A DNA stretch of 62,899 nucleotides, the filler included, from Stramenopiles sp. TOSAG23-6 (lineage: Eukaryota), in NCBI GenBank assembly GCA_900128565.1. It is 10 parts of 10 records of this genome, joined end to end, with 100 filler letters (N's around TTAATTAATTAA, not from the genome) between each part and the next. Parts side by side here need not be neighbours in the genome. Positions count along the whole stretch, not along the records: positions 1 to 8,420 come from LT636453.1; 9 more parts are not named here. One strand, 5' to 3'. The translations under genes and the position numbers were made by a program. Positions 1 to 20,904 of the stretch are shown in pieces; position 1 is the first letter of the stretch; each line of letters opens with the position of its first letter. The notes under the pieces were generated by a model, which saw nothing but the letters and a program-made list of their open reading frames with translations, did no database searches and was not told the DNA's origin.

Positions 1-55
1 CATACGAAATTTCGTACCTAACGATTTTTTTTTGAAATATTTTTTCACAATACTT
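1..55 (+). other. Introner-like intron, 3' part only; inferred end TACTT
   Basis: Core tacgaaatttcgtacctaac plus aaatattttttcacaatac box; donor lies outside the window. Confidence 0.65.
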
Positions 56-1363
56 GGTCACTCGTGATGCAGTGAAGAGAATGCGGCGTGTATATAATCC
101 GAAACGACAGCCATTAAAAAATATAGAACAGTTATTAAATCCTATGGGAATACACGAAGCTGCACAGAAAGGACGTTTAAAGCGTGTACGTTATCATTAT
201 TTTTTTGTCTAATTTTTTTTCGTACGAAATTTTGTACTTAACAAAAAACAAAAAAAATATTTTTTCACAATACGTGTTCAATGGTTATTAGAAGTTGGAG
301 GAATCCATCCAGATGTATGTTTTTTCATCATACATTTCAATTTTGTTTTATACAAATTTCGTACCTAACGGATTTTTTTTCTAAAATTATTTTTCACAGT
401 ACATTCACAAAATAAATATGGAATGACAGCACTTCACTTAGCAGCAGTGAAAAATCATGTAAAAATTTGTCAGTATTTAATTGATAATGGAGCTGATCCA
501 ACAATTGAAAATAATATTAAACAAACTGTATTTGATATGAAGCCTGGTCAAAAATATTTGAATAGTGTCTTAAATTCGAAAATGGATAAAATACGGAGAA
601 AAAAAGAAAGAAGAAAATTAGATGGTGAACAAAGGCTTCGTGATGCAATGTACGTCTTCACCATGAAATTCATTTTTTTTTTTTTTTCATTTTCGTAAAA
701 AAATGAAAAAAAATCTGTACCCTAACAAATTATGTTCTAAAATATTATTCATAATACATGATGCATCAGAAATTTCTTGAGCAGCAAAGGATAATGTACA
801 AAGGAACATCAATTGCAAAAGTTATAGTTAAAAAATTAAAGGAATTGGATCCAAATATTCCAAAATACGCGACATTTTCAGAGCCTCGTGTACGTTTTCA
901 TTCTGAATTTCAAGTTTATTTTTTTTTCGTACGAAATTTTGTACCTAACAAATTTCGAATTTAATTTCTTTTTACAATACATGTACTACCTACATCTGAG
1001 AAAGTTCAACCTATACCAAAAAGATATGATTTATGGGCGATGACAAAAAAACGCAACCTACCCAATTCTAAACTTCGCTCAATTTCAAAATTAAGACATG
1101 CTAGGAAGTTTTGTGGTGTTTTACAGCGAGATAAAAACTTTCATTTAGACACTTGGTGCAAAGAAGATGTATGTTTATTTTTTTCAATTTGGAATTTATT
1201 TTTTTTCATACGAAATTTCGTACCTAACAAAAACAAAAAAAAATATTTTTCCCCAATACATAACGGTCGTTTTGAACATTGGATGAGAGGATCAGGTTAT
1301 GCATCGAGGGCTTCTAAGCGTTCAGTTGAGAATACTGGTAAAACAGAGAGATTTTACTCATAA
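56..1363 (+). CDS. Ankyrin-repeat protein, 5'-partial; exons 56-185, 276-314, 405-649, 760-889, 983-1168, 1262-1363
   Basis: Joined exons read IHEAAQKGRLKR|VQWLLEVGGIHPD|SQNKYGMTALHLAAVKNHVKICQYLIDNGAD, a continuous ankyrin repeat, when the non-AG introns are removed. Confidence 0.85.
186..275 (+). other. Introner-like intron GT..GT (90 nt)
   Basis: cgt|gtacgtt...cacaatacgt|gtt; in-frame stop inside; flanked by CGTGT direct repeat so the boundary can slide. Confidence 0.75.
315..404 (+). other. Introner-like intron GT..AT (90 nt)
   Basis: gat|gtatgt...cacagtacat|tca caa aat; the AG at 398-399 would frameshift. Confidence 0.85.
650..759 (+). other. Introner-like intron GT..AT (110 nt)
   Basis: gca at|gtacgt...ataatacat|g atg cat joins ORF 423 to ORF 758. 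Confidence 0.8.
890..982 (+). other. Introner-like intron GT..AT (93 nt)
   Basis: cgt|gtacgttttc...tacaatacat|gta cta; full core motif; in-frame stop inside. Confidence 0.8.
1169..1261 (+). other. Introner-like intron GT..AT (93 nt, stop-free, 3n)
   Basis: gat|gtatgt...ccaatacat|aac ggt; full core motif. Confidence 0.8.
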
Positions 1364-1636
1364 AAATAAAGTATAAATTGTTTTGAATTTAAATCAAGGT
1401 TTAGTGAGGTACAGTTTTCTTTTTTTAATTTTTTTTCATCAGAATTTATTTTAATTTTTAATAATTTACAAGAAGCAGGTTTGCGCGACAAAAAAGATGC
1501 GCAGTTTTTGGAGCCAGTTCTCTCGATTCATTCGAGACGAGAGACACGCCACGCGTCTTCAAGAAGCTTCTGTCGTAATTCATTGCGCACACGCTATTTG
1601 GATTAGAGGTGAATAAAACTGGATTTGTGTTCAAGA

Positions 1637-2074
1637 ATGTCTGCGATAGAATCTAAAGTGACTGAATCAGTTGTTGAGGTGAAGGCATATCCTGTTGATA
1701 CCGGTGTTACACAAAAGGATAATCCTTTGGTTAAGGAAACAAAAGTTACGAACACAAAAGCAATTTCATGGAAACATCTTTTTCTACTAATCGTTTCCTT
1801 TGTTTCAGGTTGTATCATATCGGGGTCCGCTACTTTTTTCATTATGAACAAGGATTGCAAAATCCGAGTACGCGACATCCAAAAAGAACGTGACGATTGG
1901 ATTGATAAGTACAACAAAAAAGCTCACAATGGTGGTTGTAATCATGGTAATTGTAATCATAATCATGGTCATGGTCATGGTCATGGTGGTCATGGAAAAC
2001 CCCATGGTGGTCATGGAAAACCCCATGGTAGTCATGGAAAACCCCATGGTCATGGTCATGGATGTAAGGGCTGA
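1637..2074 (+). CDS. Single-pass membrane protein with His/Gly-rich tail (tandem family copy 1)
   Basis: SWKHLFLLIVSFVSGCIISGSATFF hydrophobic segment; HGKPHGG repeats. Confidence 0.7.
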   Translation: MSAIESKVTESVVEVKAYPVDTGVTQKDNPLVKETKVTNTKAISWKHLFLLIVSFVSGCIISGSATFFIMNKDCKIRVRDIQKERDDWIDKYNKKAHNGGCNHGNCNHNHGHGHGHGGHGKPHGGHGKPHGSHGKPHGHGHGCKG

Positions 2075-2122
2075 AACAAAAATGGCAGCCAACATAAGTA
2101 AAAAACGGTAAAAAAAGTGTTG

Positions 2123-3804
2123 GAAGAAGAAAATCTGACTTGCTCAAAATAGTTTTTGTTTCATTGACGATAATACCCGAAACCATTTATATGGAAAGGT
2201 ATAATTTTGAGAAATAACAAATTATTATGATGTAAGTCAGGAATATATTACTTTTGATCAGTCCAAAAAGAATGTTTGTGATATCNTGGNAANAANGTTN
2301 GTAATTAATGCTGTACGAATTGGATTTCAAACCATTTTTTACATACTTTAACCATTAGGTACAAAAATTTGGTATGGAATCAACTATTCTAGTATGCATC
2401 TGTGAAATGTGGTGTTTGTGTATTGTGTATAATTATCAGTGAATTTATATGTGATTTAATAAATCTTTTTGAATTTGTACAAATTAGTGCACATTTTTTA
2501 CGAAATAACATAAATTTTTTTGGGATAATAATTTTGGCTGCCGGATGCCACGTGTCAGAATATAAGGTAGCAATATGCAATATGCTACCTATTCAGCGAA
2601 CGGAATTTTTCAATCTCGATTATCTGCATCGAGTACTTGTGAGTCGTCAAGCCAATCAAATACAAAGGTTATTGGAAGTTTTTGTAAGAATATGGACTCC
2701 AATCTCAACGTTGATACTTCACTGCCACAAAAGTCACAGGCTTGTGCTGCAACAGTTATTGGGGTACCTGTTGTAGTTGAAGGGCAAACAAGAAACGTGA
2801 AACCACGATTTTCGTGGAAAGTTATCTTGCTTCTCATCCTTTCGTTTTCGTTAGGTTGTATTTTTTCGGGGGGAGCAACATATTTCATCTTGGATAAAGA
2901 TTATGAAAATAGGATTCAAGATATAAGGAGTGAAAATAATCGTGGTGGAAACAATCCCTCTCCTGGTTACAACGGTCATCGTCACTCTCCTGGTTGCGGC
3001 TGTAATCAAGAACAGGGCTCTTCCGATCCTGAGGAAAATGTTGAAGGCTCTTCCGATCCTGATGAAAATGTTGGAAAAGGTAATGGTCTAAGTGCAAAGG
3101 ATAGTGGAGAAGAGGGATCTTCTAATCCTCTTGGAAATGTTGAAAAAGGTAGTGGTACAAGTATAAAGGATAGTAAAGAACAAGGTTCTTTTAATACTAA
3201 TGGAAGTGTTAAAAAAAAGAGAGGAAATTTCAGAGGAACAAATTTTGGTTTGCGTCAATGGGGGTGTCCTTGTGGAAATCACGGCCAAGGTGATTGCGAT
3301 AATGATAGTTTTTGCATTGAAGTCCCAAAGTAGCCTCCATTACAAACGCTTGGGCCTAAAATTTAGTAATTGTTGTAAGTCTTTGGTTTATTTTTGATGA
3401 GTTGAAGAAGAAAATCTGACTTGCTCAAAATAGTTTTTGTTTCATTGACGATAATACCCGAAACCATTTATATGGAAAGGTATAATTTTGAGAAATAACA
3501 AATTATTATGATGTAAGTCAGGAATATATTACTTTTGATCAGTCCAAAAAGAATGTTTGTGATATCAGTGGAAACAATGTTAGTATTAATGCTGTACGAA
3601 TTGGATTCCAAACCATTTTTTACTTACTTTAACCATTAGGTACAAAAATTTGGTATGGAATCCACTATTCTAGTATGCATCTGTGAAATGTGGTGTTTGT
3701 GTATTGTGTATGATTATGAGTGAATTTATATGTGATTTAATAAATATTGAATATTCAAATCTTTTTGAATTTGTACAAATTAGTGCACATTTTTTACGAA
3801 ATAT
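2123..3804. repeat. Duplicated downstream/intergenic block, ~2123-2507 and ~3404-3804; diverged third copy ~4575-4700
   Basis: Near-identical sequence starting gaagaagaaaatctgacttgctcaaaatagtttttgtttcattgacg. Confidence 0.9.
2692..3333 (+). CDS. Single-pass membrane protein (tandem family copy 2)
   Basis: SWKVILLLILSFSLGCIFSGGATYF..KDYEN shared with copies 1 and 3; start chosen by alignment with copy 3. Confidence 0.7.
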   Translation: MDSNLNVDTSLPQKSQACAATVIGVPVVVEGQTRNVKPRFSWKVILLLILSFSLGCIFSGGATYFILDKDYENRIQDIRSENNRGGNNPSPGYNGHRHSPGCGCNQEQGSSDPEENVEGSSDPDENVGKGNGLSAKDSGEEGSSNPLGNVEKGSGTSIKDSKEQGSFNTNGSVKKKRGNFRGTNFGLRQWGCPCGNHGQGDCDNDSFCIEVPK

Positions 3805-4003
3805 CATTTTTGGGAATTTGTTCCAACTTCCAAGTTCCCAGAATTTTCAAGCAACAGTGGTGCCACGTGTCCGTCGGTGTCACGAATATTACCTCTAAAA
3901 AAAATTATAGATTCAGCATTTTTTTTGTCGTTCGTTGTGGTGCCATAGCTACGTGCACGAGAAGGAGTTAGACCAATCAAATTTAAATTTTTTTTGTAAT
4001 AAT

Positions 4004-4540
4004 ATGGAGACCAATCTCAAAGTTGATACTTTGCTGCCACAGAAGACACAGGCTTCTGTTGCAATAGATACTGCGCCACCTAGAATGACAGAAACAGTAG
4101 TTGTAGGGAAAACAAGAACTCTGGAACCACACCTTTCATGGAAATTTATCTTGCTTCTCATCCTTTCGTTTTCGTTAGGTTGTATTCTTGCCGGGGGAGC
4201 AACATATTTTGTCTTGGATAAAGATTATGAAAACAAACTTTATGAATTGAAGTTAGAGAATGCAATAAATCGCGGTGGCTCTTCAGGTTGTGGCTGTGGC
4301 TCTCCTGACTGCGGGGATAACAACTGCGATGAGGAGGATTCTTCTGGCGTTGGCCCTTCAGGTTGTGACTGTGGCTCTCCTGATTGCGGGAGGGATAAGA
4401 AGGATGAAAGTGTAGCGCCTGATGTAGTGCCTGATGGTAGTAAAAGTGTAGAGCCTGATGGTGGTAAAAGTGTAGCGCCTGATAGTAATAAAAGTGGAGA
4501 GGATGCTGGTAATAAAAGTGTAGCGCCTGGTCGTCCGTGA
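4004..4540 (+). CDS. Single-pass membrane protein (tandem family copy 3)
   Basis: Same TM block; GCxCGSPDCG twice and KSVAPD repeats. Confidence 0.7.
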   Translation: METNLKVDTLLPQKTQASVAIDTAPPRMTETVVVGKTRTLEPHLSWKFILLLILSFSLGCILAGGATYFVLDKDYENKLYELKLENAINRGGSSGCGCGSPDCGDNNCDEEDSSGVGPSGCDCGSPDCGRDKKDESVAPDVVPDGSKSVEPDGGKSVAPDSNKSGEDAGNKSVAPGRP

Positions 4541-5143
4541 TGCGGACACTAAGTCTTTTGCTTATTCTTCGTGAGAAGAATATCTGATTTTTACAAAATA
4601 GTTAGTTTTTGTTTCATTGACGATAATACCCAGTAACCGTTTAATAGGAAGGTATTATCCGAGAAATAATGAATTGTTATGATAAAAGTCATGAATATTT
4701 TTTACATCTGTCCAAAGAAAATTCTAAGTTTCCAAAGAAAATTCGAAATTTCGGTTTTAGTCCGTTCTTGTAATTTCAGGAGAGATGTTGTGAGTAAATG
4801 TGATGTATTAATGTTCGTGTAGGTGTGAATATGGTTATTTTGGTAGTATGTTGTTATAAATATTCATTATCAAATTATATATCTCTTATTCTTTATAGGG
4901 GCCACACCACCGGTAATACATTATACACACAAAATGTCGTACAAAAGCAGGTTTGTGCGACAGGAGTCAGTTTTTCTGTTCAATCAACCTGCAAAGTCCT
5001 GAAGTAGCCCTAGACAACCACTATACTTTCCTTCATAGTAGTAAATTGAGGATACTACTTGTATTTCTTTGTATTACTCGTTAGCTATTCAATACATCGA
5101 GAAACATTGAAGCGAATTTTTATTAGACAATTATAGTTACGAA

Positions 5144-7399
5144 ATGGCTGCTAAGTTATCGTTGTCGTTTGATAGTGATGCTCGTTCTAGAGAACTCATG
5201 TTGGCGTCTCTACCGAAAAGAAATACTTCTTTAAGTAGTTGTGCCACGAACCACTCTGTTCGGCCTCATGAATATAGTGTTGCAGAATTTTATGAAGTTG
5301 AAAAAACAGTACGCACAATTAAAAGTCGTGGATACCGTGTAATTGCCCTTCAGTTCCCAGACGAATTATTACCAGATTCCCCTGCTGTGGTCATGGAAAT
5401 ACAAACTAGAATAAAAATTTCTGGTTATGCAGCGCAAGTGTTCGTACTGGGGGACACGCAATATGGAAGCTGTAGCGTAGATGAAGTATCCGCACAGCAT
5501 CTGTCTGCGGATTTTATTGTCCATTATGGTAATGCATACTTAAATCCTTCTCGAATGATACCAGTTCAGTACATTTTTGGAAAAATGCCGATTAACACCA
5601 AAACGTTTGTCACTCAAATTAAGACTCAATTCCCCTCAAATACAAAAGCAATTATATTTTGTGAAGCACCCTATACTCATATGATTAGAAATGTCAAGAA
5701 TATGTTAATGGAATCGCATCCAAATATTTTATTTTCGTATCCAATCTTGGACGAAAATGGTTTTGTCGTACGACACAAGTCTACTATTGAACATTCTTCT
5801 GTTGAACATTCTTCTATTGAAAAGTCTTCTATTGATTGCTCTTTACCAGTGGACAATTCAACGGAAAAAGAACGAACAAAAGTAGAGGGTAGTACTATCT
5901 TATCAACTTCTACTGATGTTGGATCATCTGATATGAAATATTTCCCGACTAATACTAATAGTAGCTGCTGTAGAGAGCAAAACAAATGTCAATCTACTAC
6001 GCCTTGTTCTAATAATCAAAACAAATGTCAATCTACTACGCCTTGTTCTAATAATCAATCTACTACGCTTTGTTCTAATAATCAATGTGATTTTGTGTAT
6101 GAGAAACCGAACACATTTTTATGTAACCCTCCCGTATTAAAGATATCTAATAGTGATTCTGGACTATTTGATATAATATGTTCTGATTTTAGTGATTCTT
6201 CCGACGAAGAAGGAGAAACTGAAATATCTGCCAGACTGAGTGTACAAAAACTACATGAAATGTCGGATAAAGATACAAAAGATACAAAATATAGAAAAGT
6301 CCCTATACAATCAAAATTATTGGAGGATATTGCAAGAAATAAAATTGAACGTGCAAGTAATCATCAAGAAAATAGTATCCCAGAGGATACACAATTCGTC
6401 TCCAAGCGCAAAATAAATGGAAATTTTTACTTTGGAGGTTTCTCATTTTCTATTCCAGCCATTGAACATGTAGATGATTATAATTGTATTTACGTGGGAC
6501 AACCAGGTGAACAATTATCAAATCTTGTTATTCAGTATAAACATAATCGTTGGTATACATTTAGTATGACATTTGATGATAGTACACGTACGGTTGGTAG
6601 TGAGATGAATACGAAAAAGAATACAGAAAAAAATAATGAAAAATGGAATTTTGCCCCGTATTCGCTTCAAATTGATAAATTTCTCATGCGAAGATATTTT
6701 GTTGTAGAAAAAATTCGAAAGGCAAAAATAATTGGTCTTGTTGCTGGTACTTTGGCTGTTTCTGGATTCAAGGAAGCAATGGACCGTGCCAAATCTCTCA
6801 TCACGAAATCTGGTCGAAAATGTTATAGTTTTGTCGTTGGAAAATTAAATGTTCCTAAATTGGCAAATTATATGGAAATTGACGTTTTTGTTTTAGTTGC
6901 TGCTCCTGAATATTCTTTTCTAGCTGGAGCCGAAAGCAAGGAATTTGTGAAGCCTATTGCTACTCCATATGAATTAGAAGTTGCATTGAATGAAAATACA
7001 AATTGGACTGGTGAATATATTACAGATTTTTATCAATTGTTGCCGAAAAAAGAGAAAGAAATCAAATTGAAAAATGTAGAAAATAGTTCAAAATTAAAAT
7101 TGAAAGATGTACTTTGCAATGTTGATACAAACGTACCTCAAAAACCTCAAAAACCTCAAAAACCTCCAAAACCTCAAAGCAAAATACTATCAGCTAATCA
7201 TACTGTTCAAAGTGAAGCTTTAATAGCTTTTGGTTCGCGTGCTTTAGTTGAGTATAAAAGCCCCGCTGGTGATTTTCTTCAAAAAAGAGAATATACTGGT
7301 CTCGAAACACGAATTGGTGAAACTGAAGTCAATGGTATTATAGATGGACTTGATGGAATTGCATCATGTTTTGAAAGTGAGATGACTCATGAATTGTAA
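5144..7399 (+). CDS. DPH2: Diphthamide biosynthesis protein 2
   Basis: ALQFPDELL, LGDTxYGSCxVDE, GKLNVPKLANYxEIDVFVLVA and C-terminal FLQKREYTGLE...GIA motifs. Confidence 0.9.
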   Translation: MAAKLSLSFDSDARSRELMLASLPKRNTSLSSCATNHSVRPHEYSVAEFYEVEKTVRTIKSRGYRVIALQFPDELLPDSPAVVMEIQTRIKISGYAAQVFVLGDTQYGSCSVDEVSAQHLSADFIVHYGNAYLNPSRMIPVQYIFGKMPINTKTFVTQIKTQFPSNTKAIIFCEAPYTHMIRNVKNMLMESHPNILFSYPILDENGFVVRHKSTIEHSSVEHSSIEKSSIDCSLPVDNSTEKERTKVEGSTILSTSTDVGSSDMKYFPTNTNSSCCREQNKCQSTTPCSNNQNKCQSTTPCSNNQSTTLCSNNQCDFVYEKPNTFLCNPPVLKISNSDSGLFDIICSDFSDSSDEEGETEISARLSVQKLHEMSDKDTKDTKYRKVPIQSKLLEDIARNKIERASNHQENSIPEDTQFVSKRKINGNFYFGGFSFSIPAIEHVDDYNCIYVGQPGEQLSNLVIQYKHNRWYTFSMTFDDSTRTVGSEMNTKKNTEKNNEKWNFAPYSLQIDKFLMRRYFVVEKIRKAKIIGLVAGTLAVSGFKEAMDRAKSLITKSGRKCYSFVVGKLNVPKLANYMEIDVFVLVAAPEYSFLAGAESKEFVKPIATPYELEVALNENTNWTGEYITDFYQLLPKKEKEIKLKNVENSSKLKLKDVLCNVDTNVPQKPQKPQKPPKPQSKILSANHTVQSEALIAFGSRALVEYKSPAGDFLQKREYTGLETRIGETEVNGIIDGLDGIASCFESEMTHEL

Positions 7400-7585
7400 A
7401 AAGTTTTGTTAAAGTAAGAAAAAATGGTACGCAGTGAGATTTGAACTAAGAATATTTCAATAATAATAATAATAATAATAATAGTAGAAAATATTTAAAT
7501 TTGTTGTACGTTGAAAAATGTACTAAATACACCACGTGTTCCAATTAAAAATTTTACAATGAAATGTTTCAATAAAAATTGTAAT

Positions 7586-8420
7586 TTATTTTTTTATTTT
7601 GTTTGGCGTGACAGTATCATTTGGACAAAACCTTTTCTCCACCAATCTATCAATTGCTTTCTTAGTTTCACTTCTCCATTCTCCTCGATATGACTCATTT
7701 TGTAATGATGTCAGACGTTTCACTATATTTTCCAATTCACAAAATTCCTTTGATTGAATATTTATTAAATTCAAAGAATTGGCTTCTACTTGTTTAAAAT
7801 AATATAATGGTGAAGAACTTCTCATCATTTTTGAATCAAGTGTTTTCTTTATTTCGTCATATGAAGCCCATAGAGCTCCACAAGATTCAAAATTTGGAAT
7901 GGATTTTGGTTCTGGATTTGCCTCAATCGGTTCAGCTAATAAAACAACACGTAATGCTGAACGATGTTGGAAAATATCTAAAGCCGCAATTATTTTTACT
8001 GCAATGCCAGCTTCTTCCTCTGTCTCACGAATAGCAGCGTCTACAAACGATTCACCTGCATCTACTCGTCCTCCTGGGAACCAATAAAGAGATTTTCCAC
8101 CAGCACATAGACCAGCTGGTTCATTAACTAAGAGATATTTTCCATCAAGACTTCGGCAAACAACAAGAGAAAATGCTGTGAAACGAGGTCGAATTTCTGG
8201 AACTATTTTACTAAGTGAATGATGTAAGTGATCATACTGAAGATGACATTCCCAATTTGGATGTATATCCTGAAAATTTGTCGGACAAATACAACCAGGA
8301 ATAGGACAGCTTGTAACATATGAATTCCATATTTTAGAAGAAGACATACCCATGCTATGAAATAATGAGTCATGTAAATGTAATCCTTGTTCTGACAAAT
8401 CAGGAAAATTACATTTTGGG
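7586..8420 (-). CDS. Nudix hydrolase, 5'-partial
   Basis: Nudix box GGRVDAGESFVDAAIRETEEEAGI. Confidence 0.85.
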
Positions 8421-8520
8421 NNNNNNNNNNNNNNNNNNNNNNNNNNNNNNNNNNNNNNNNNNNNTTAATTAATTAANNNNNNNNNNNNNNNNNNNNNNNN
8501 NNNNNNNNNNNNNNNNNNNN
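8421..8520. other. Artificial contig linker; also at 16934-17033, 25421-25520, 33905-34004, 42380-42479, 50853-50952, 59320-59419, 60514-60613, 61707-61806
   Basis: Identical 100-nt N-padded TTAATTAATTAA six-frame stop; contig lengths decrease monotonically (>=8420, 8413, 8387, 8384, 8375, 8373, 8367, 1094, 1093, 1093). Confidence 0.97.
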
Positions 8521-11500
8521 GTTGTACATTTCTTGGCAGTTTGGCAATGATCACCTTCATAACCATCATTACATTTACATGTGCACTTATTACCAGTACC
8601 CGAGGGCTCACCTTGACCTTGCTTGCAAGCTAGCTGATTTGGTCCAAGTGTACATGTTTTCTCAGCATTGCAGTTTGTGCCCTCATACCCTGTGTCAGAG
8701 CAATCACATGTACAATTTCCAGTTGTTCCAGTGACAACCCCTTTGTTGGCACATGGCTTTCCACCAGGCCCAGAATTACATTTTAGAGCCGTCTCACAGT
8801 GATCTCCACGGTATCCTGGGAGACATGAACATCTACATATATCACCACTGCCTATAGGACTTCCACCATTTTTACACACTTGTTTGTTTTTGCCAGTTGT
8901 ACATTTTCCTCCAGCATCCACTTCAGATACAGCTGTTGAATTTGTTGAATAAAGTCCTATTGCAATACGTACACCATTGTCACTCTCACAAACATCGCAT
9001 TCGCAATTCACAATTGCATCATCTGAAGAGACTGACATTTTACAAGTGGATGCATTGGGTTCAGTTTGCTGAAATGTCTTTGAGATTATTTTTTGCATAG
9101 GAGTCCACGTTACAGATCCTACCCATTGGCGAGAATTCCATGATCTTTCCGTCCATGTTCTCTGATACCATATTTGGTTTAGTTCAAGACAAGCTTTCGC
9201 ATTCGAAATACCAGCAACATTACAGGTGGATATACATAAGTCTTTACCAACCAAGTCTGTGTTAATAGACTTCATGTATTTTGTCGGATCTGTGACAGAA
9301 CTATCCATTTTAACTTCCATGCACGTAGACAAACAATTATCTTTCGTAGAATTAACATCTTTCCACGTATAATCATCACTGACAGCTTTTACTTTTGAAA
9401 CCAAGGTGGTACTCCCATTATCGGATGATGTACAGTATCCCCCAGTACAATTGTTTGAGTTCTGACATACACTAGAATATCCTGTGACTGTACGACACTC
9501 TGCATTCGTACAATAACCAACAGAAGCCTCACAGAGGTCCTTTGATTTTATAAGTGGGTCTGTACACGTACCCTCAGCAAGAGCTACTCCACGACCAGAA
9601 GTCAACATTGTCCAAGCCTTACATTTCAAATCTGCCTTCAAATGACCTTCGGGCATTGGAAGTGACACAGTTACCCTAGATATACCCCCTCTATAAGTAT
9701 ATTCGTCACGACGAAGTGCACAATGATTTGATTCGAGACAATTGCTAGACGTTGGATTTTTTACTGCTGCGCAATTAGTGCTTTTTCGTTTGCAAACTGT
9801 TTCAAAATTTGAATCTCTTTCTGAGACGCAATGGTTGACTGTGCCGCCAAATGTTGTAGTAGAATCACAAGAGCCTTGTTCGACATCTGCTAGAGCTTTA
9901 CAAACAGTTTCAGGAATAATAGGTTCGCAAACATAATCTGAATAGTTACACTTTGACTCAGCGACAGTTTTCAAATCAGACTTGATTTCACTTCCCATTA
10001 AATCCACTGTTTTAATTGTAATACCTGGCTTCACAATTTGACTTACAAAGACGATAGGCGATGCAATCTTTTCTAAATCTCCTGGCCTAGCTAATGATTT
10101 AGCCAATGCAGTAACGCCTACAGTGTTACACCCAAAGGATGGCACAGAGGATATGGACACATTCATACCTAATACTGAAAAAACACCAGTTGGTGTGGTA
10201 CTTGAAATAGTTTCTGCGAGTATTTTTCCAGATGATGAAAACGTATAAGCTGGCATCTTCTCATTACAGGATAGCTGTGCATCCGTAGCTCGCACTGCAC
10301 CATCAGCCATGTCTATTAAATTTCTGCCGCTTATACTTTCTTTGAATACTGGAAATTTATCATACAATTCTGTCCATAAGAGCACTAATCGAGCAAAAAC
10401 TCCCATTTCATTTAGGACTTCGGGTTTTTTTGAAGGTATTGCTTCATTATAGTTCCTCAAGTCAAGCGACCATGGATTTTCACTTGATTTGCCATTGTCC
10501 GCTTCTTCACTTAAATTACGCATTGCTGTTGAGAGATACTCTGGAAGTGTCTTCAATGACTCAGAAAGTTTTGCCTCCGTAGCACTGGAGATACTTGCAA
10601 CGTCGTAAATATATTGTGAGTGTTGGACAACAGTATTCGCAAAATCAGGATTTTCAGCGTTCGCCATATCAATAACACTAGTGACAATCTTCGAGATATC
10701 TGAAGAAGATTGTCCTGCAGTATTTCCACCAAGTCTTCGATTGCGTGAACGCATTGATGCCTTTTCAGTTGTGCCCAAATGAATTTCAAAATCTCGCAAT
10801 CTTTGTAGTGCNATACCAAAAATTTCGAGATTTCGCTGAGCTTTTGCTCCCTCAAAAACTTTTAATATATTCTGTTTCGATTCCTCTGCAGTGCTAAATG
10901 ATTTCACCTTCACGCTGACTCCAGGATCGGCATTCATTTTCATTGCTCCTGAAGCATTCCAAGCGCGACATTGAATTATGACAGTAGATGAACCAAGAGG
11001 TATTTGTTTGCCTTCTTTATCAACAAACCGACCAAATGGTAGTATTTTGCTGAATATTGGTGAATCAATCTGTCGTTCAGTGAGTTGATGAAATACTTTG
11101 TCTTCACCAGCCCAATACACCTGATATCGACTTGCTTCCGGCCACTGGCCGCAATCAATCTCAAAGAATGTTGAGAATTCCACTCCCTCTTTTGGAGTAA
11201 CGACTGTGCCACCCTTTGGTGGCTTTGGTGGGGTGTTCATTTCAATAATTACAGTACTTGTTGCAGTACTTGCACCACTCACCCTACAATTAGTTATGTC
11301 GAAATATTGCTCACAACCCTGTTTATCTGAATCCCATTGACACTCCCATGCCTGACCACGAAAAGTACTATCTTTACTCGCTTTAAACGTCGTACAACTT
11401 GCTTTCGAATTAAAAGAGAAACATTTAGTTGTACCCGTCGATGAGTGTTTTGTATACACAGCAGTGCATTTATCAATATCACTGCTGCGATGGCTTAAAC

Positions 11501-14500
11501 TTTTTGATTGATCTATGGGCCGCTCGGATGCAGTCAGAGTCAATTTGTATTTTTGACCATGTTGTAATGTCCCTGGAGCTATAGTGAAATATGCCTTGTC
11601 ATTTACAGGTACAGAGTAATACCCAGGTGAAGGAAGAAGAACATCATCTGTGGAATTTTCTACATCATCAACTCGCCATGCAAATGTCATAATGACATCT
11701 GCTTCCATTGACAATGCGCTTCCTCGAATACGAATACTATCGTTTGCATTCAATTTTTTACGTGATGTCAACACTTTTAGTGTAGCAGAAAAGTTTCCCG
11801 AGGAATCATTACTGATAACAGTAACCTTATCTTCATTTTGTCGATCAGGAGCACTAAGCAATGTTAATTTCTTCGTCTTACTAATATAACCAGTGAATAA
11901 ATATGATGAATATGGCGCCAGACGATCATTTCCAATACCATCATTATCTGAATCCAAACGAAGTGACATCTCCCTTGGAAACTTATCACGAAGTCCAACA
12001 TTTTTCTGAATCTTGGCAGAATCACCTGCGGAAGTTGTTGTGTAGCCATTAAGCAGACAATGTGTATCCTGAAGAATATTCTTGCACTTCCAATTGTATA
12101 ACAGTGGCCTTCGATCTGTACGCCAGTCTGGATCTGAACTGCCAGCCATTGAAACGACAGCTGTAGTATCACCTGCAAGAATAGTTGGAGTTCCATGCAT
12201 CACAATGTCAAGTGGTCGGAAGCGAGGTTTGAGCACAACTGAATGCACTTCATTTGCAATCTTACTCAATCCTGTACGCCATATTCGAGCAGTCACTGTG
12301 TATGCTCGACCTGCAAGGAAGAGATCACGCGGGAAAAATATACTTGCCGCTGTAGTTTCCGCTGCGATGCGATGTACTTTTTTATCTGCATTACGAACGT
12401 CGGGATGCAAACCTAATGATTGATCTTCATCGCCAATCCAATCGTGTTTGATTGATACGCTCCAAATCGCCGAGAGATCAAAGAACGTTTTCCCACTGTA
12501 GCAACACGAGTATTCGATTGATGCATAGAATTTTGCAGCATCTCCTGACATAAATTGTCCTTCATCTAATGTTGACTGTAACGAAAAACCATACGAGTCA
12601 TCTGGACGACTCCAATTGAAAGATATAGAAACAGGGCCATGGCTCACAAAATTAGTTGCAGGGTGCCCATTGTGCACATATAATGGATCAGTGGATACAC
12701 TTACAGATACATCATAAGCTAGACCCATAGCAAACTTTTCAGGATGATCATTTCCTCCCAAATCCTCAGCTGTTATTCTATAATAAGAATTTTCTGTCCA
12801 ACCTTCCGCACGAGTTCCAGAAGCATTTATTTTTTTATTCAGTACGTCTAAATATCCCTGTAACTTCTTCGTCTCTTCTGGGGTTCGAGGTTCATATCCA
12901 TTGATTTGACATCCTGAAACCTTCCCACATTTTGATATTGCGTTAACGCCTTGTAATGACGAGTGGGTGCATGGTAATGCACTGCATTTTGTGAAAACAT
13001 CACCTGAAAGTTCGCTTAGACAATCGGGATCGGCTTTGCAATCACTATCTGTATTATGGTACCTACATGTTCCTTGTAAGGAATCGGCTATTGCAGTTGG
13101 TCGAAAACCTTCACACTTCATATCTGATGAAATTGGAGGAGGTGTATTATTTGCAAAAGTGACTAACCATTTATATGATAGCGGACGAATACTTGAACCA
13201 CCAAGCGAAGATGATGCATCGAAACCAATGCCACCCCATGATTCACTCTTTTTTGGACAAGGTTTCAACTTTCCTCTAGCGACAAGTTTTGCCCTTGGAG
13301 CAATATTAACTTTATGACTCGTAAGATTTACAGATGCAGTTGACGACTTTGATTGAAATGTTAAAGGCCACAACCTTCCCTCTCTTATCTTTATTGCAAA
13401 GCCTTCTGAAGCACAAAATTGAGTCTTGCAGATATCACCATACAGAGAGACATAGACTTTTAATCGCGAAGAGCTTATCCATGTGCACTTAGAATCAATT
13501 CCCAAACCATATGAAGTTCTTGAACTAAATAGCTTTGAGCAAAGAAAATTAAATGGAGTAAGGGTTTTATCGTATCCTCTCATTTTATCAGTATCTGTAT
13601 CAAATAATATATCAATGTATGGGCGAGTATTTCCTCGATGCCACTTGGCATACTCCATTTTAGGTGGTGGTGCCGAATGATAATCAAGAGGATTACAGAT
13701 AGTATAATCAGCTGATAGTGGTGGCGTATCAGCCATGAAACCATAAGCGTCATTTTTTGTATTATAGTTTGAATTTAATCCACCTGAAGCCAAAGCTTGA
13801 GATTGATTGCAGGATTGGCCATTTTCATCACACGTCGGACATGTTGCATCAATATTACCATTAGCAGTAGATTCACATCCCATAGATCCGGTCCACAATT
13901 CTCCAGATAATACATTGGCACCTGCAAAGACTATTCTATCATCTTTATCTTTACCAGTTGCTAGCGCGGAAATAGGTCCAGTGCCTAGACTAGATGAAGC
14001 AAATGGTTTAATATCTGTTTGCCTTGGTGAATACCAAGTGAGTCGATCTTTCATATCGGTTGATAATACTGCAATAACTGGATCGCCATCATCACCTTGT
14101 TCGTTACTTCCATTTGCTCTCAAATTCATACTGGCAACACTTGCAGCAGGAAGGCTGTAGAACGCTACACCGCCCACGAATGTTCTACTGTCGTCATCAA
14201 CAGCAAGAGATTGCACCCGAAATGCTTCGTCTTCTCCACTTTCTTGTCTTGGAATCAAAAACTGCGATCTTTTTACCTCTCCGGTCTCTTCGTCAATATG
14301 AGCAACATATCCTTGATATTTACACCAAATATATGCATTACAAGTATGTATGAATCCTTTCCTCGACTTCTTCGTGATAAAAGACATTGGATCAGAAAAT
14401 GAATCCTTCACTAAATAGCGAGTACCGTTAGCTGACAATTCACTTGATTTCATTCCATCAAACCGAAATACGCTCATTGGAGATCCTCGAGTTTCGCCAG

Positions 14501-16933
14501 CTGCAAATAAGAGACCACCTTTCACTTCAATACGTCGAATAAGTGCATCAGCGTAATAATTTGGATAAATATCAAGAGCTGTATAATCCCAGGTATGCCA
14601 TAGCTCGTTTCCAGTAACAACAGAAAATGCTTTAATAAATGGAACCTGCGTAATTCTGCACTTATTGTAGCCTGTTGCTGGATTATGACAACCACTGCGA
14701 TTCATATCTTCTCTTACATAGTTATAACCAGATACATAAAGTTGTCCCCCATTCCGTGGTGATATAGCAACATCTGTCAAATGGTAATTCATCGGCATGC
14801 ATTCCACTTTTGAACAATCGCTTCCTTTTCGCCGTTCATTAAAAATTATCTTCTTATTTTCGTCAATTTTCTGACAGTGACACTCACCAGCATCATTATT
14901 CCATCCCTTGATTTCAAAGAATTTCTTACCACTAGTGAGTGCACTCGAACCGTCTTCAGAATTAAGCAAGTATACTTTATTACCTTTGATGGCAGCTATC
15001 AGAGTATCTGCCGCAGCTACACGACACTCTTTCTGTGAATAATGAGTCAATAACAATGAATCAAGTGGAATAGTTGATTTGCTGGATACAGCATCTTCAC
15101 GTTTCTCGTCAAATACTTCATCTGTAAATATTTGCCCTTTCAGACTTCTATTATCGCTTGAATACGAATCCGAGCATGTATTGGACGTTTTTGGTACACG
15201 AAAGCCTGAAATTCCACCTGGTTCACTTTCCCATCTACAGTTTTGAAGTTCAGTGTCCGCTGGAGTCCATAAAAGAGATAAATCATCTGCGTTAAGCGCC
15301 TGTAGACCATGTTGAATTGACCATATAACAACAATCTCTGCATCAATCTTTCCAGAACCCCCCTTTTGCTTTGCAATGGCAATATCAATAGAAGCATCGT
15401 ATCCACCAGCAGGGATTTTAGCGATATCACCATTATCTAGATTTTTTGAACTAGTTTTAGTATCTTCGCCTTTTCCAAGTATTGCTATGGCTAGGAGATT
15501 CATACCACGATAAACACGTTTATACTTCACGCTTTGTTGTGACACCGAAAACTTCATGATACCAGCACGCGCAGCGTTCCCTTCTTTTGAGTCTGCATTA
15601 TTCAGATACTTTTGATTCATCAACTGATTTACAGATCCAAATCTTCCCGAGACATAAATCATACCACTAGTTGAAACAACGGCACCAGTTGTCAATGTAT
15701 GCTGCTGAGATACATTGGCTAGAAAGCTACCGTATTGAGCAGAAGTGTCTGTAGTCTTGCAGGCTTTGCAATTATCAGCAACTAGTCGATGCATACCCGC
15801 ATATATTGGATAGGTTGGATCACAGTAATCGGTAGCGTACTCATCAGTACGTCCTGTCATCATTACACCGTATATAGTCTCCCCATCAGGTGAAAAGAAA
15901 TCTACAAGTTTACGACACTTATAATCGATATCGCTGCGTGCAAGTTCCATTACTTCAGGCGTAGGAGCACCAATATTTGCACGTTTAGCGAATCCATCTC
16001 TTATACCTTCTTTATCTGTCCACATAGATGATTCTTTTGTTTCATAGTCATTCTTCTTACGACCTGCAAAAAATATTTTATGATTTTTAAAGACAGAAGG
16101 TGTTGATCCAGATAGTTTAGTAGGTAATAATGCCGGACCCCATTTTTGAACACCGTTCTGCCATTTATATGCATTTGCACCGACAAACCAGACTTCATCA
16201 GGATTGTTGCTGCTTCCACTTTGATAAAAAAATCTTCCTTCATGAAATCACAAAGCAAACTATAGCCAGTGCCGCCACAAGTCTTAATATCTTTACCTGT
16301 CACAGTTTTTGGACTGAATGTAAAGTCTTTAGCACCACTCGGTAGCGTAAAAATCATATCTCTACACAAATCATAAGTGCAAGTTCCCACAGTTACAAAA
16401 ACAGTTCCAAATGAGTCAGCCATTACCTGTAAGGCATTATCATTTAATTCCAAAGTACGTTTATAGCCTTGACTACAGTTGTCTGGTTCAGTCCACGATG
16501 TCTTCCAGTAGTATGGGTTTGACCATTTGTTCTCTAATCCGTATTCATTCCAAGAATAACTCTGTGTATACGTGTCTAGCGAAAAACCCCACCCTGAATC
16601 GTTCCAGCCATAGCTAACCTTTACGCCTTTGCGAAGACACGACTCTTCTGTTGCGTGAATATTCCATGTACCACTAGCAGAAGTACACGTCGTCTTTTTA
16701 TGTACTGGTCGACATACATTGGAGTCAAAAGTACAGCCTTTCTCTGATTCACACGCTGTTTTCTGCGCAGCATCATTAAGTGGGATGCCATCAACCGTTT
16801 TAATGTTATCCCAATCCTCCCTTGTCACCCCGTAACAAGACACTGCAAACTTTTCAAACGTATCTTTTCCTGCAACGCCTGGGAAGGTACAAAAACCATT
16901 CTTTTCTGTCTCTCCGGCACATATGCCGCAAGT
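8521..16933 (-). CDS. Giant Cys-rich extracellular protein with REJ/PKD-like region and C-terminal EGF-like repeats; both ends missing; one frameshift near 16245
   Basis: SSDPD...YNWKC and NTPPKPPKGGTVVTPKEG..FSTFFEIDCGQW resemble REJ; CxCxxGYxGxxC EGF repeats; ORFs 16001-16843 and 8469-16025 join by a one-base shift. Confidence 0.75.
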
Positions 16934-17033
16934 NNNNNNNNNNNNNNNNNNNNNNNNNNNNNNNNNNNNNNNNNNNNTTAATTAATTAANNNNNNNNNNN
17001 NNNNNNNNNNNNNNNNNNNNNNNNNNNNNNNNN

Positions 17034-17116
17034 AAAAATCTAAAAAAATTTGTTAGGTACAAAATTTTTTTACCAAAAAAAAAAAAAAATCGAATTTGAA
17101 AAAAAATAAAACATGC
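17034..17116 (-). other. Introner-like intron with GC donor, 3' end lost at contig edge
   Basis: cgt|gcatgttttat...ttttgtacctaac. Confidence 0.7.
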
Positions 17117-17631
17117 ACGTCGAAGCATCGGAAAGAATTTACGTCTATCACTATTTCCAATACGCCTGGCAGGACTAGCATTTTTGAAACTGTCTTGCAT
17201 AGTATTTGTATTATTTTCAGAGATAATACTTAAACGTTTTTGTATACTTTTTGTCGGGGTACTAAATAATTCAGCATCATGTTTGATTTCATTCTGGTTA
17301 TGTTCATCTTGATACAAATCTTCGTCCCAACAACTTCTGCAGCCCCTAGTATTATGGATAATGAAAAAATATTTCAAAAAAAAATCATAAATTTTTGTTA
17401 GGTACAAAATTTCGTATGAAAAAAAAAATAAATTAGAAATTCATATGAAAACGTACACTACATCTACAAATACATTTCTTTAGCTCCTTCATCCAAGAAA
17501 GAGTATTTTCATCTGTGTCTGCGGCAAAGAATAATCCATGTTCGCTATGAGGGATATCCATATAAAAACATTTCGTGCTACGACATAAATTACTATTTAC
17601 TTTACCATTCGTTTCAATATTCTCCAGAGAT
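17117..17631 (-). CDS. PH-domain-like gene fragment; exons 17631-17457 and 17353-17117
   Basis: [33 protein letters not shown] resembles a PH-domain C-terminus. Confidence 0.6.
17354..17456 (-). other. Introner-like intron GT..AT (103 nt)
   Basis: agt|gtacgttttc...ttcattatccat|aat act agg, phase 0. Confidence 0.7.
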
Positions 17632-17741
17632 CTGTATTTTGGAAAAATATTTCAAAAAAAATCTAAAAAAAATTGTTAGGTATAAAATTTCGTACGAAAA
17701 AAAAATCGATTTTTTTGTTAAAAAAAAAAAATAAAACATCC
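17632..17741 (-). other. Introner-like element at a chimeric MUT/PH junction (GG..AG)
   Basis: cca t|ggatgtttt...aaaatacag|; the flanking exons belong to different proteins. Confidence 0.65.
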
Positions 17742-18816
17742 ATGGATCTTGCTCAGTCAAGGAATACCCTGATGTTTGACAATGTGTTCTTAATAGCCAA
17801 CTTTTTTCATTTTTTGCACCAAATCGATCACGTGTTATTTCAGCCCATAATTCTCTAGCAGCACGCATTTTAGCAACTTCCATATAAAAATTCATACCAA
17901 TTCCCCAAAAGAATGAGAGTCTTGGTGCAACGTCATCTACCTGGAGCCCAGCAGCTTCAGCACATTTAAGGTATTCAATTCCATCTGCCAATGTGAATCC
18001 AAGTTCCAATTTATTATCAGCACCTGCTTCTTGCATATGGTAACCGGAAATTGAAATGGAGTTATATTTTGGCATATGTGTTGCTGTATAACCCATTATA
18101 TCCTGAATAATTCGAAGGGAAGGTTTTGGATGATAAATATACGTATTTCGTACCATAAATTCTTTAAGAATATCATTTTGAATTGTACCTGCCAATAAAC
18201 TACGATCAACGCCTTGTTCTTCACCAGCTACTATATACATAGCAAGTACTGGAAGAACCGCACCGTTCATGGTCATAGACACAGACATCTTCTCGAGAGG
18301 AATTCCTTCAAAGAGAATTTTCATATCTTCCACGGTATCAATAGCCACACCTGCCATACCAACATCTCCAACAACGCGCGGGTGGTCACTATCATATCCA
18401 CGATGTGTAGCTAAATCAAATGCTACACTTAGACCCTGCTGTCCGGCTGCTACATTTTTTCTGTAGAAAGCATTAGAAGCTTCTGCAGTAGAAAACCCCG
18501 CATATTGACGAATAGTCCATGGCCGTGCAGTATACATTGTAGCATAAGGACCACGGGTATACGGATAAGAGCCAGGAGGTGCAGGATCTTCTAAATGTTT
18601 AGTATCAGCTGCGGTATATATCGGTTTTATTGTGATATTTTCAGGTGTGGTCCATAAAAGTGATTTTGGATCTTTTCCTCGGAGCTCCTTTTTTGCCTTT
18701 GCTTCCCATTCTTCGGGAAATTTCACAGTAGAGCTACTATGTCTGAGATGCCTAATTGGTGATGTAATGTATCCATGAATGAGTGAAGGCAAATTGCCTC
18801 TTCTGACATTCAACAT
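17742..18816 (-). CDS. MUT: Methylmalonyl-CoA mutase, N-terminal part only
   Basis: [64 protein letters not shown]. Confidence 0.95.
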
Positions 18817-19066
18817 TGTCACCCGTATACAAACAACACAATATCTATCTCTCTCCTCCAGGGGTCAATATTTTTCGGAATTTGTGTTTCGTGGTGGTGT
18901 CATTTTTGTCAAAATGCGCTGCAGTCAAGTCAGTCCGAAACAGATTGATTAGCTTACTACAAGTGCACTCTATCTTCTATTCTAATATAGCTTTTCTGTT
19001 GTAATTGGAGATTGTAGGGTTGTATATAGAACTAATTTCTATGGCTGAATAAATTCATCCTGATAA

Positions 19067-20767
19067 ATGACCCCAAATAGAGTTTCATGTTCTACATCAC
19101 ATTCATGTTTGCTGTGCGAGTTTGTGGCTTCTACGAGTGAGTTATTAAGAGCACATTACGAGAGTAGTAAGCATGGTTCTCTTGTTGCTAAACAGTGCCC
19201 ACACTGCGAGTATTCAAGTAAATTTGCGGGTACTTTACGACGCCATATAAAAAGTGTTCACACCCTAGAAAATCCTTTTAAATGTGAGCATTGTGATTAT
19301 GCAAGTTCACGTATTGGAACACTGCGTATGCATATACGAAAGAAACATCCGTTGTTAGTAAACACTGCTGAAACTGGATTAAAATGTTTACCAGTTTCCT
19401 CTAGAAGTCAAGAAAGCATCACTTTTTCAGCGGATGGTTATACGACTGCTGCTTCTGTATTCAATCAAAATCAACCTATGGATTGCTTAAGTGACGATAC
19501 ATCTTCGAAAAATAGATTCAAAACGAAAATGTTATTTCCTAAAACTCTAATTTTAGGAGAAATGGACTTCAGTTTTTCTCTGTCACTTATGAATAGATAT
19601 TTCAATAATAATAATCCCCTTAGACATGGTGTTTTTGCTACATCATATATTAAAGCAGAAGATTTTGCATATACTCGAATTAAAAAAAAAATCAGGCAAA
19701 ATATTCGCGTATTAAAAAAGCGTGGTGCTTTTGTACAACATGTACGTCTTCACAATATGAACGTATGAATTTTTTTTTCATAGGAAATTTCGTACCTAAC
19801 GATGTTTTCATGATTTCGTGTTTTTTTCACAATACATGGCGTTGATGCAAGAAATATTGCTGGTACATTTCATTGGGAAAATGCGTACAAACATGACGTA
19901 GTTGGCTTTGAAAAATCTGCTGAAAGTAATTTCATTGGTCAATTGAAGGAAAATCCACATAAAAAGAGGAAAATTGAAATTTCTTCGACAGATAAAAAGA
20001 GGAAAATTGAAATTTCTTCGACAGATCAACAAAATGTTGACCAAGGCGACAAACAAAATCAAAGTATACAAAAAATGGTAGGAATAGCAGAAAATATAAC
20101 ATTTGATGGCTGTACTAACCCTACAAATCCTGCAAAGCATATAGAGCATTCTGTACATACCAATGAAAGCAGAATATTTCAGTTTGATTTAGATATTATT
20201 GCATTTTGCTTTCCTAGATTTAGTACTATTACAGGGATTTGTTCAGAAAACTCTGATCTTCTTGGAAAGTTTTTTTCAAGTGCTCTTGATGTATTGTCTC
20301 CTTCCGTATGTTTTTATTATCAATTTCAATTTCAATTTTTTTTTTTTTCCAAAACATTCAAAAATTTCGTGTACCTAACGTTTTTTTNATTCTAAAAATA
20401 TTTTTTCTCAATATATGGGACCATAGCGATTATGTTACATGTTTGTATAATAGATGGTGTTTCTGAAGACCAATATAATGCATGGGGTGTTGACGAGATA
20501 GCTAATAGTGTAGGTTTGAAAAGAGTTGCTGCTCTTGAATGTCGTTTTCGGCACAATACACAAATTCGAAATTCGAAATGTGGTACAAATTTAATTTCAA
20601 ATTTGTCAAATGCCACCCCTCATGGTAAGAAGAATACTTCAACGAAGTCTCATAATGATAAAGTAAAACATGTTGTAGAAGATTTTCCTCAATATCAACC
20701 AAGAGCTCGTGATGGGAGATCCTTTTCCCCTGACAAAGCGATACTTCATGTATTAAAGAGAAAATAA
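19067..20767 (+). CDS. C2H2 zinc-finger protein; exons 19067-19741, 19838-20305, 20417-20767
   Basis: CPHCEY...LRRHIKSVH and CEHCDY...LRMHIRKKH; frames join across two GT..AT introns. Confidence 0.8.
19742..19837 (+). other. Introner-like intron GT..AT (96 nt)
   Basis: cat|gtacgtctt...cacaatacat|ggc gtt; an alternative in-frame donor exists near 19763. Confidence 0.75.
20306..20416 (+). other. Introner-like intron GT..AT (111 nt)
   Basis: tcc|gtatgtttt...ctcaatatat|ggg acc; alternative in-frame donor at 20291. Confidence 0.7.
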
Positions 20768-20904
20768 ACTAAAAAAATGTTACTTTTTGTATTAAAGAGA
20801 AAATAAACCAAAAAAATGTTTTACGTTATTTATTTCAATAAGAATTAGTTGTTGATTTATTTTACTTTATTTATTATTCTGTTGTTTTTTTTACTTTATC
20901 TATT

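Follow-up and report, generated by a model that had tools for sequence, protein, structure and literature searches.

An introner-like family of probable GT...AT introns in Stramenopiles sp. TOSAG23-6 and how it may have been gained

How did one ankyrin-repeat gene come to hold a series of related short introns that, judged by its reading frame, appear to end mostly in AT? The gene opens a window of 62,899 nucleotides (nt), to which all coordinates refer, from Stramenopiles sp. TOSAG23-6 (assembly GCA_900128565.1); ten parts are joined in it, and positions 1-8,420 are LT636453.1. A sequence-only reading had attributed the introns to a non-autonomous DNA element that duplicates AT on insertion. 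As the best explanation overall, and one that we consider probable, our analysis points to a mobile, introner-like family of GT...AT introns gained after exonic AT, with such a duplication as the leading mechanism. The window sequence is eukaryotic, with a G+C content of about 35% and long exons. Its eRF1 comes closest to marine sequences, at 82% identity, and, among those with a named source, to stramenopiles at 65-72% (Mucochytrium, Bacillariaceae, Ectocarpus and Aureoumbra).

Positions 1-1363 of the plus strand form a single ankyrin-repeat gene with five complete family copies and the 3' part of a sixth, which bears out the earlier count of six related copies in 1.3 kb. Copies are written below as a body followed, after a plus sign, by the two nucleotides that would be removed with it.

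54-1363, plus strand: host gene, ankyrin-repeat protein; exons 54/56-185, 276-314, 405-649, 760-889, 983-1168 and 1262-1363 (stop).
1-55 (1-53/55), plus strand: family copy, 3' part, truncated by the window start; end ...CACAATAC+TT; profile positions 38-90, E=3e-11.
186-275, plus strand: family intron GTACG...CAATAC+GT, the sole copy ending in GT; as we read the repeat, ankyrin-repeat spacing is compatible only with removal of body plus 2 nt.
315-404, plus strand: family intron GTATG...CAGTAC+AT; upstream exon end AT; profile match.
650-759, plus strand: family intron GTACG...TAATAC+AT with divergent middle; upstream exon end AT; weak profile match (E=0.22).
890-982, plus strand: family intron GTACG...CAATAC+AT; upstream exon end GT, unmatched; about 94% alike to the copy at 25340.
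1169-1261, plus strand: family intron GTATG...CAATAC+AT; upstream exon end AT.

Removal of the body and the following 2 nt from the five complete copies yielded one stop-free 834-nt open reading frame (ORF) of 277 codons with its stop at 1363. Removing the body alone, or with one or three further nucleotides, left 15-21 stops. The upstream exon ends in AT at three of the five copies and in GT at two. As had been stated, the GT-ending intron follows a GT-ending exon: copy 186-275 must end in GT, and so does the preceding exon. An orthologue search with this gene returned ankyrin-repeat matches only, at 40-53% identity.

The family is not confined to this gene. Its core GTACCTAAC occurs 33 times in the window with at most one mismatch, versus 7.2 expected and a maximum of 13 in 100 shuffles. 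A profile built from eight copies, one of the checks proposed for the earlier reading, gave 27 matches at E<0.01, and the window total is about 28 copies in 63 kb, including two weaker but obvious ones (650 and 20306). Twenty of the delimitable copies are complete, four have only a 5' end and two only a 3' end, these six being cut by contig ends or the window start. Copies measure 90-115 nt. Their bodies start with GTAYG and end in ATAC and, with AT flanks, read ATGTAY...ATACAT. The donor GTAYGTTTT (with C at position +4 in 12 of 24 copies and T in 10) is followed by T-runs with TTCAAATTCGAATTT-like blocks, then by a central near-palindrome, CGTACGAAATTTYGTAC, overlapping a branch-like TACCTAAC whose branch A lies 34-44 nt from the intron 3' end. 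The A/T tail is free of AG in 16 of 19 copies, and the 3' end reads T(T/C)CA(C/A)AATAC plus 2 nt.

Each of the 24 copies whose 5' end is readable is preceded by a same-strand open frame of 102-1320 nt. The host genes, named by Pfam and PDB searches, are unrelated: ankyrin, DUF4116, SPAG6, BMT5-like methyltransferase, lectin-like, SAP-domain, IQ-motif and M48 peptidase genes. Mean pairwise identity is 0.60-0.74 and nearest-neighbour identity 0.67-0.96. The closest pair joins the SPAG6 copy at 50454 with the lectin-like-gene copy at 21983 (0.96), and another pair reaches 0.91. Copies elsewhere in the window include the following.

19742-19837, plus strand: family intron in the BMT5-like methyltransferase gene; upstream AT, intron end AT.
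20306-20416, plus strand: family intron GTATG...CAATAT+AT; upstream exon end CC.
21895-21983, minus strand: family intron in the lectin-like gene; upstream AT; end ...AATTC+AT; 96% identical to the copy at 50454.
22091-22191, minus strand: family intron GTTTG...CAATAC+AT; upstream AT.
34408-34545, minus strand: long divergent copy GTAAG...CAATAC+AT; upstream exon end CA.
53745-53842, minus strand: family intron GTACG...CAATTT+AT; upstream exon end AA.

Such likeness could in principle reflect only long, strict splicing signals of the organism, with no mobility. The donor, branch-like motif and 3' motif are the best-conserved blocks, and non-family introns carry GTA.GT and TAC.TAA-like motifs too. 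However, the similarity spans the whole copy, spacers TTCAAATTCGAATTT and TTTGAAATATTTTT included; pairs in unrelated genes are 91-96% identical; ordinary GTAAGT...YAG introns (28440-28561 and others) occur in the same window without the family blocks; and contigs break within copies, as at high-copy repeats. This explanation is disfavoured and very improbable. Related introns at non-homologous sites of unrelated genes, far above chance in number and up to 96% identical, support an introner-like family, as the sequence-only reading had proposed.

Seawater metatranscriptomes contain parts of the window, and four runs were compared with the stretch 17034-25420. In three of the four, upwards of 1200 contigs per run matched at 90% identity or above, and depth over element copies reached about 2000-7000 versus 0-9 in most exon-only bins. 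Exon contigs in the four runs differed from the window at few positions or none, and their depth was low. The depth over the elements indicates that the family is present in very many copies in the sampled communities, and DNA carry-over in the libraries is possible. An exhaustive search with the exon before the copy at 17456 found two matches, both low-complexity repeats. Metagenome contigs matched at four loci, of which L003 alone holds a real copy, the other three having the 19-nt core only. At L003 the longest ORF across the junction comes with removal of body plus 2 nt (225 aa versus 191-212), a weak preference. No further family copies were found in the viral contigs searched.

Removal at the DNA level, in the manner of ciliate internal eliminated sequences, which are bounded by a 2-nt direct repeat and leave one repeat unit behind, would suit short, AT-rich elements, and about half of the copies do have such a repeat. 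The other half lack it. All 24 oriented copies lie in sense and have a spliceosomal donor and branch-like motif, unlike ciliate-type eliminated sequences, whose excision from DNA is orientation-independent. The elements are moreover abundant in RNA libraries (with the carry-over just mentioned). We regard DNA removal as barely credible.

Where the introns would be cut was read from frames and from homologous proteins. Reading frames demand body plus 2 nt across copies, including two cases framed by hand, the short exon 276-314 and the flank at 44371. The SPAG6 gene gave residue-level resolution.

50155-50260, minus strand: family intron GTACA...AAATAC+AT, SPAG6 gene; junction confirmed at residue level.
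50354-50454, minus strand: family intron GTATG...AAATAC+AT, SPAG6 gene; junction confirmed at residue level.
50538-50636, minus strand: divergent copy, SPAG6 gene, spliced GT...AG (...TTGTAG); the following AT is kept in the exon, within a Tyr codon.

Exons A and B of the SPAG6 C-terminus correspond to residues 391-430 and 432-457 of solved SPAG6 (9ijj), and exons C and D had no PDB match. The SPAG6 C-terminus of a related organism (P0121; 176 aa, encoded on a contig of 1108 nt) shows 92% identity over exon A, runs uninterrupted across three family-intron junctions and covers the region of a fourth. Spliced by the family rule, the window's SPAG6 aligned with P0121 without gaps over 119 residues (score 475). 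The score fell to 301 when 2 nt were left in, to 440 with the next in-frame AG, and to 183 when the AT after the copy at 50636 was also removed. Copies 50454 and 50260 would therefore lose body plus AT, and the copy at 50636 would be a GT...AG intron. By this homology the copies appear to be spliced out of mRNA. The P0121 contig may derive from either a transcript or genomic DNA; if it is genomic, three of the SPAG6 family introns, and possibly the fourth, are absent from a close relative, which would mean recent gain. Homologues extend beyond the point at which P0121 has its predicted start (M), as would be expected of a genomic contig with an upstream intron.

Frames fix the length of the excised segment; its register was read mainly from copies in a DUF4116 gene and from an RNA contig.

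44371-44467, plus strand: family intron GCACG...AAATAC+AT, DUF4116 gene; upstream flank NT; N-containing flank framed by hand.
44657-44764, plus strand: copy without a GTAYG start and without any GT; 9-nt ATGAAATTT on both sides, so that nine cut registers, AT...AC included, give identical mRNA.
45036-45150, plus strand: family intron GTATG...CAATAC+AT, DUF4116 gene; upstream exon end AA; decides the register.
46043-46147, plus strand: copy with an ATACG 5' end close to the gene's end; possibly no longer spliced.
17354-17456, minus strand: family intron GTACG...TTATCC+AT; upstream exon end GT; an RNA contig ends exactly at 17457.

A cut placed 2 nt to the left would give AT...AC introns (ATGTAYG...ATAC), a known spliceable pair, with the downstream AT kept in the exon. 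About half of the copies are AT-flanked on both sides and give the same mRNA either way, over the whole ankyrin-repeat gene the choice of model alters a single residue, and AT...AC is among the possible registers of the GT-less copy 44657. Yet at 45036, whose flanks are AA and AT, GT...AT splicing gives AVNQNGIALEF and AT...AC gives QYG, at a position where other repeats of the DUF4116 protein (Pfam) have N in 8/10 and D in 2/10. RNA contig X3 record 17 (174 nt) follows the exon as far as 17457, immediately before GTACG, and then continues with 30 nt off the intron, whereas AT...AC predicts an end at 17459. Termini are uniform in the GT...AT register: 5' ends are GT in 19 of 24 copies (GC in two, GG in one, two damaged) and 3' ends AT in 18 of 21 (AG in two, GT in one). 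In the other register the 5' dinucleotide would be AT, GT, AA, CC, CA or TA. Where ATAC is mutated (seven copies), the terminal AT is intact in six and the seventh has AG. The AT...AC donor would also be unlike the U12-type RTATCCTT. Given the QNG motif at 45036, the contig end at 17457, the uniform termini and the retained terminal AT, family introns are best read as cut GT...AT, with the body and the final AT removed, and the AT...AC cut is quite unlikely.

Two other candidates were rejected. A hidden downstream AG acceptor would be in frame in only 7 of 19 copies, a chance level, and scored 440 versus 475 in SPAG6. An RNA structure joining the ends gave z-scores of -2.1 to +1.0 in ten copies, with end pairing in one of ten folds.

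In the GT...AT register the excised intron would begin with the G of GTAYG and finish with the T of the final AT, a dinucleotide that would stand in the usual place of AG. Two decayed relatives bear on this.

40992-41085, plus strand: decayed relative, end ...TACAATACAG; canonical AG at the family's AT position.
41322-41429, plus strand: decayed relative, end ...AACAATACAG; upstream exon end AG.

Decayed relatives end in ...CAATACAG, with AG precisely at the family's AT position, and AT may therefore act like an ordinary acceptor position. At the last aligned position most copies have T; G occurs in a few, which are mostly divergent. In donor and branch-like motif the family resembles the AG-ending introns of the window. 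U12-type signals are absent from the family: the donor consensus is GTAYGTTTT, not RTATCCTT, and the branch A lies far upstream at 34-44 nt. The U12-type branch motif is TCCTTAAC-like and about 10-20 nt from the 3' end, unlike the family's TACCTAAC. A U2-type spliceosome would be the likeliest agent of splicing, on 3' ends that depart from its canonical AG (AT 18, AG 2, GT 1 of 21). We propose that a few old copies later converted AT to AG.

Published systems are compared here through the accessible text of each source. Physarum minor spliceosomes tolerate a GT-AT boundary (bioRxiv 10.1101/2020.10.12.336362); the family differs from those U12-type introns in its GTAYGTTTT donor and in its branch A at 34-44 nt, not at about 10-12 nt. 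For the mechanism of gain, the relevant precedents are introners that co-opt their acceptor from the target duplication, as in Chrysochromulina (PMC9860276), so that the claim that known DNA-transposon introners take a splice site from that duplication is documented. ISL2EU elements favour AT-rich targets, of which they duplicate 2 bp, typically AT (PMC4122938).

What, then, placed AT on both sides of so many copies? The upstream exon ends in AT at 12 of 23 readable copies, versus a background of 0.11 in coding sequence, weighted by phase (binomial p=1.3e-6); the claim that about half of upstream exons do so thus holds window-wide as it does in the ankyrin-repeat gene. Among non-family AG-ending introns the count is 1 of 8, against 12 of 23 (Fisher one-sided P=0.058); these eight controls were picked by eye, an ORF-continuity catalogue having been dropped as too noisy in AT-rich sequence. 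The four youngest complete copies are all AT-flanked. Copies would have been gained by insertion directly after exonic AT. In the mechanism we place first, a non-autonomous DNA element would be moved by a transposase that duplicates a 2-bp AT target, as ISL2EU does, and the right-hand AT would become the acceptor. Such duplication is favoured because an AT-ending element that prefers to land after AT would otherwise be a coincidence; the locus 186-275, where GT stands at both ends, and the precedents of ISL2EU and of acceptor-co-opting introners also speak for it. It is the single most likely mechanism, held tentatively at somewhat less than an even chance. A palindromic target CAT^G was also considered: C at -3 occurs in 10/24 (p=0.005) and G at +1 in 10/21 (p=0.027), the full motif in 1 of 20 loci; the p values are uncorrected over 16 positions and the pattern is suggestive only.

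Many observations weigh against this account or parts of it. On splicing, no junction-spanning read was seen in the four metatranscriptome runs, the joints listed (15 of 49) being repeat-to-repeat joins; where AT stands on both flanks, GT...AT and AT...AC yield identical mRNA; the GT...AT register hangs on one repeat-motif argument and one contig end; and copy 44657 has no GT at all. On a target duplication, the window contains no clear intergenic or antisense copies (weak matches at 22948 and 56169). Copies are strongly clustered, with six in the ankyrin-repeat gene versus 0.5 expected (P=1.4e-5); SPAG6 has four within 0.37 kb, and a 7.8-kb ORF is free of them (P=0.009). Some element-flank pairings may be chimeric: each flank-element junction is real, the left-right pairing not necessarily so.

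Further observations bear on duplication within loci. Exon end equals intron end at 11 of 20 loci versus 10.35 after shuffling (P=0.40), and among loci with a non-AT side only 186-275 matches (1/10). A match that holds only across all introns cannot tell duplication from target preference (PMC9860276). The proposed check that the two ends should agree most often in the youngest copies gave no significant trend. AT-flanked copies do not have significantly higher nearest-neighbour identity (Mann-Whitney P=0.15), and copies 890 and 25340, a young pair with about 94% likeness in a hand count over some 81 nt, have upstream GT and AA.

25340-25420, plus strand: family copy, 5' part, truncated by the contig end; upstream exon end AA.

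At 45036 the exon end AA is original because the repeat motif QNG is conserved, and the intron's AT is thus no copy of AA. The ends had been described as near-inverted, GTAY...ATAC. They are as described, but no more than 3 nt (GTA/TAC) are truly inverted, or 4 nt if Y is T (10 of 24 copies); this match overlaps the donor signal, lacks covariation and falls short of the survey minimum of 6 nt. No hairpin was found, the ends being unpaired in nine of ten predicted RNA folds. The search for a partner transposase found no transposase family among the window's 42 ORFs and no ISL2EU-type DDE/THAP or YqaJ ORF. Of the proposed AT-duplicating non-autonomous element there remain, in short, a non-AG end that is usually AT and the enrichment of AT upstream; an excess of within-locus matches, inverted repeats beyond 3-4 nt and a transposase in the window are lacking.

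These results suit an element that inserts after exonic AT with no target duplication. Its own AT end would be an unusual acceptor derived from ...CAATACAG, and its spread could be RNA-mediated (reverse splicing, reverse transcription, recombination), as proposed for fungal introner-like elements. No locus-specific match of exon and intron ends would then be expected, 45036 would need no extra mutation, and the non-AT flanks of the young pair 890/25340 and the AG at the same position in decayed relatives would follow. Copies are genic and sense-strand only and cluster in genes already containing introns, usable terminal inverted repeats or a hairpin are lacking, and fungal introners without target duplication or inverted repeats have been described (PMC9860276). 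This alternative leaves unexplained why an AT-ending element should prefer AT (12/23) and why GT meets GT at one locus, and reverse splicing that selects an exonic AT has no known mechanism. It is nearly as likely as AT duplication and, taken by itself, possible but on the unlikely side.

Duplication by a DNA transposon, which we keep in first place, and its rival can both be set against known introners. The surveys (PMC9860276, PMC12130899) describe donors GT, GC or GA, acceptors AG, target duplications of 3-9 bp and inverted repeats from 6 nt. Like the marine algal and protist introners in them, the family is short, high-copy and gene-enriched, lies in unrelated genes and sites and carries one or both splice sites. 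Unlike them, it has AT acceptors (18/21), a candidate duplication of 2 bp and inverted ends of 3-4 nt. Amoebophrya elements have hairpin-forming inverted repeats of 8-20 nt and direct repeats of 3-5 nt, and their terminal dinucleotides are not fixed (PMC7789003). The family shares with them repeated non-GT-AG introns, short direct repeats over the exon-intron borders and the lack of an internal transposase, and differs in its fixed GT...AT, normal-looking donor, branch-like motif and absence of a hairpin. ISL2EU transposase (DDE with THAP, plus a YqaJ exonuclease ORF; PMC4122938) has no counterpart in the window, although the family's AT flanks are enriched. Fungal introner-like elements resemble it in being genic and sense-only, without target duplication or inverted repeats, and reverse splicing has been proposed for them; they have canonical boundaries and, in the accessible text, no reported exonic dinucleotide preference (PMC9860276).

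Introner-like families are thus a known kind. The uniform GT...AT version is apparently undescribed in the literature searched, which, survey supplementary tables lying outside it, held no family with uniform GT...AT ends whose donor and branch-like motif look normal and whose AT aligns with the AG of decayed relatives. Introners are also reported from Micromonas and Aureococcus, and non-canonical introns derived from miniature inverted-repeat transposable elements are said to occur in the tunicate Fritillaria.

At present, bursts of intron gain are best explained by introners. If the account is right, the AT-ending family makes up most introns of this 63-kb sample, and standard gene finders would miss it, breaking most multi-exon genes here. 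The catalogue of intron-generating elements would then under-represent non-canonical families. A mobile element, not the spliceosome, could dictate the acceptor dinucleotide. The natural AT/GT/AG series at one aligned position would serve the study of 3' splice-site choice, and the family would offer a concrete system for comparing transposon-based with RNA-based intron gain. The most far-reaching version, that the ordinary spliceosome routinely accepts an AT 3' splice site since an ISL2EU-like, AT-duplicating transposon seeded most introns of the genome, each taking its right-hand target copy as acceptor, so that the transposon's target preference imposed a new genome-wide splice-site class, with slow conversion of AT to AG, is rather doubtful as a whole.

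The window's construction bears on how its copies are paired with flanks. Linkers of the form N44-TTAATTAATTAA-N44 lie at 8421-8520, 16934-17033, 25421-25520, 33905-34004, 42380-42479, 50853-50952, 59320-59419, 60514-60613 and 61707-61806. The first seven parts descend in size (8420, 8413, 8387, 8384, 8375, 8373 and 8367 nt) and three of about 1093 nt follow. The parts are separate contigs, and adjacent ones are therefore not necessarily genomic neighbours. A family copy adjoins five of the nine linkers, and the window start also falls within a copy. Contig breaks at copies are the expected effect of a high-copy repeat on short-read assembly: the repeat breaks the assembly.

17632-17741, minus strand: family copy GGATG...AAATAC+AG; end ...AAATACAG; its two flanks are probably from different loci.

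A methylmalonyl-CoA mutase ORF (17617-18864, minus strand) ends at Pfam profile position 306/512, exactly at this copy, and the exon beyond it encodes an unrelated protein, PH-domain-like and Cys-rich. On this evidence some copies would join flanks of different loci; the mutase gene with its copy is probably an assembly chimera through the repeat. A copy at 42480-42551 (minus strand), within the M48 peptidase gene, has an ordinary 5' portion (AT followed by GTATGGTTTCATCATGAATTT...) and after it a reverse-complement family core adjoining the contig end; it may be a fold-back chimera or a genuinely rearranged copy. A composite intron of about 200 nt at 40517-40715 (plus strand) has a family 5' half, a second donor-like start (GTATACGTC...), a full core and the end ...CACAATCAAT; it may represent two copies, in tandem or nested.

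The copy-free 7.8-kb ORF (8469-16247, minus strand) is intronless and encodes 2592 aa, Cys-rich with an EGF-like C-terminus; its product has no Pfam match at E<=0.001, and its small neighbours hold 4-6 family introns. An Rfam scan of the window returned no matches. Just downstream of the family copy at 35201, inside a contig, three telomere-like units (GGGTTA GGGTTA GGGTTA) lie at 35016-35033 on the minus strand. Between 1613 and 4540 (plus strand), three tandem paralogous genes without family introns code for small membrane proteins of the single-pass type, whose tails are rich in His/Gly or Cys/Gly, and two of the three genes are followed by near-identical non-coding segments (2230-2480 and 3510-3760).

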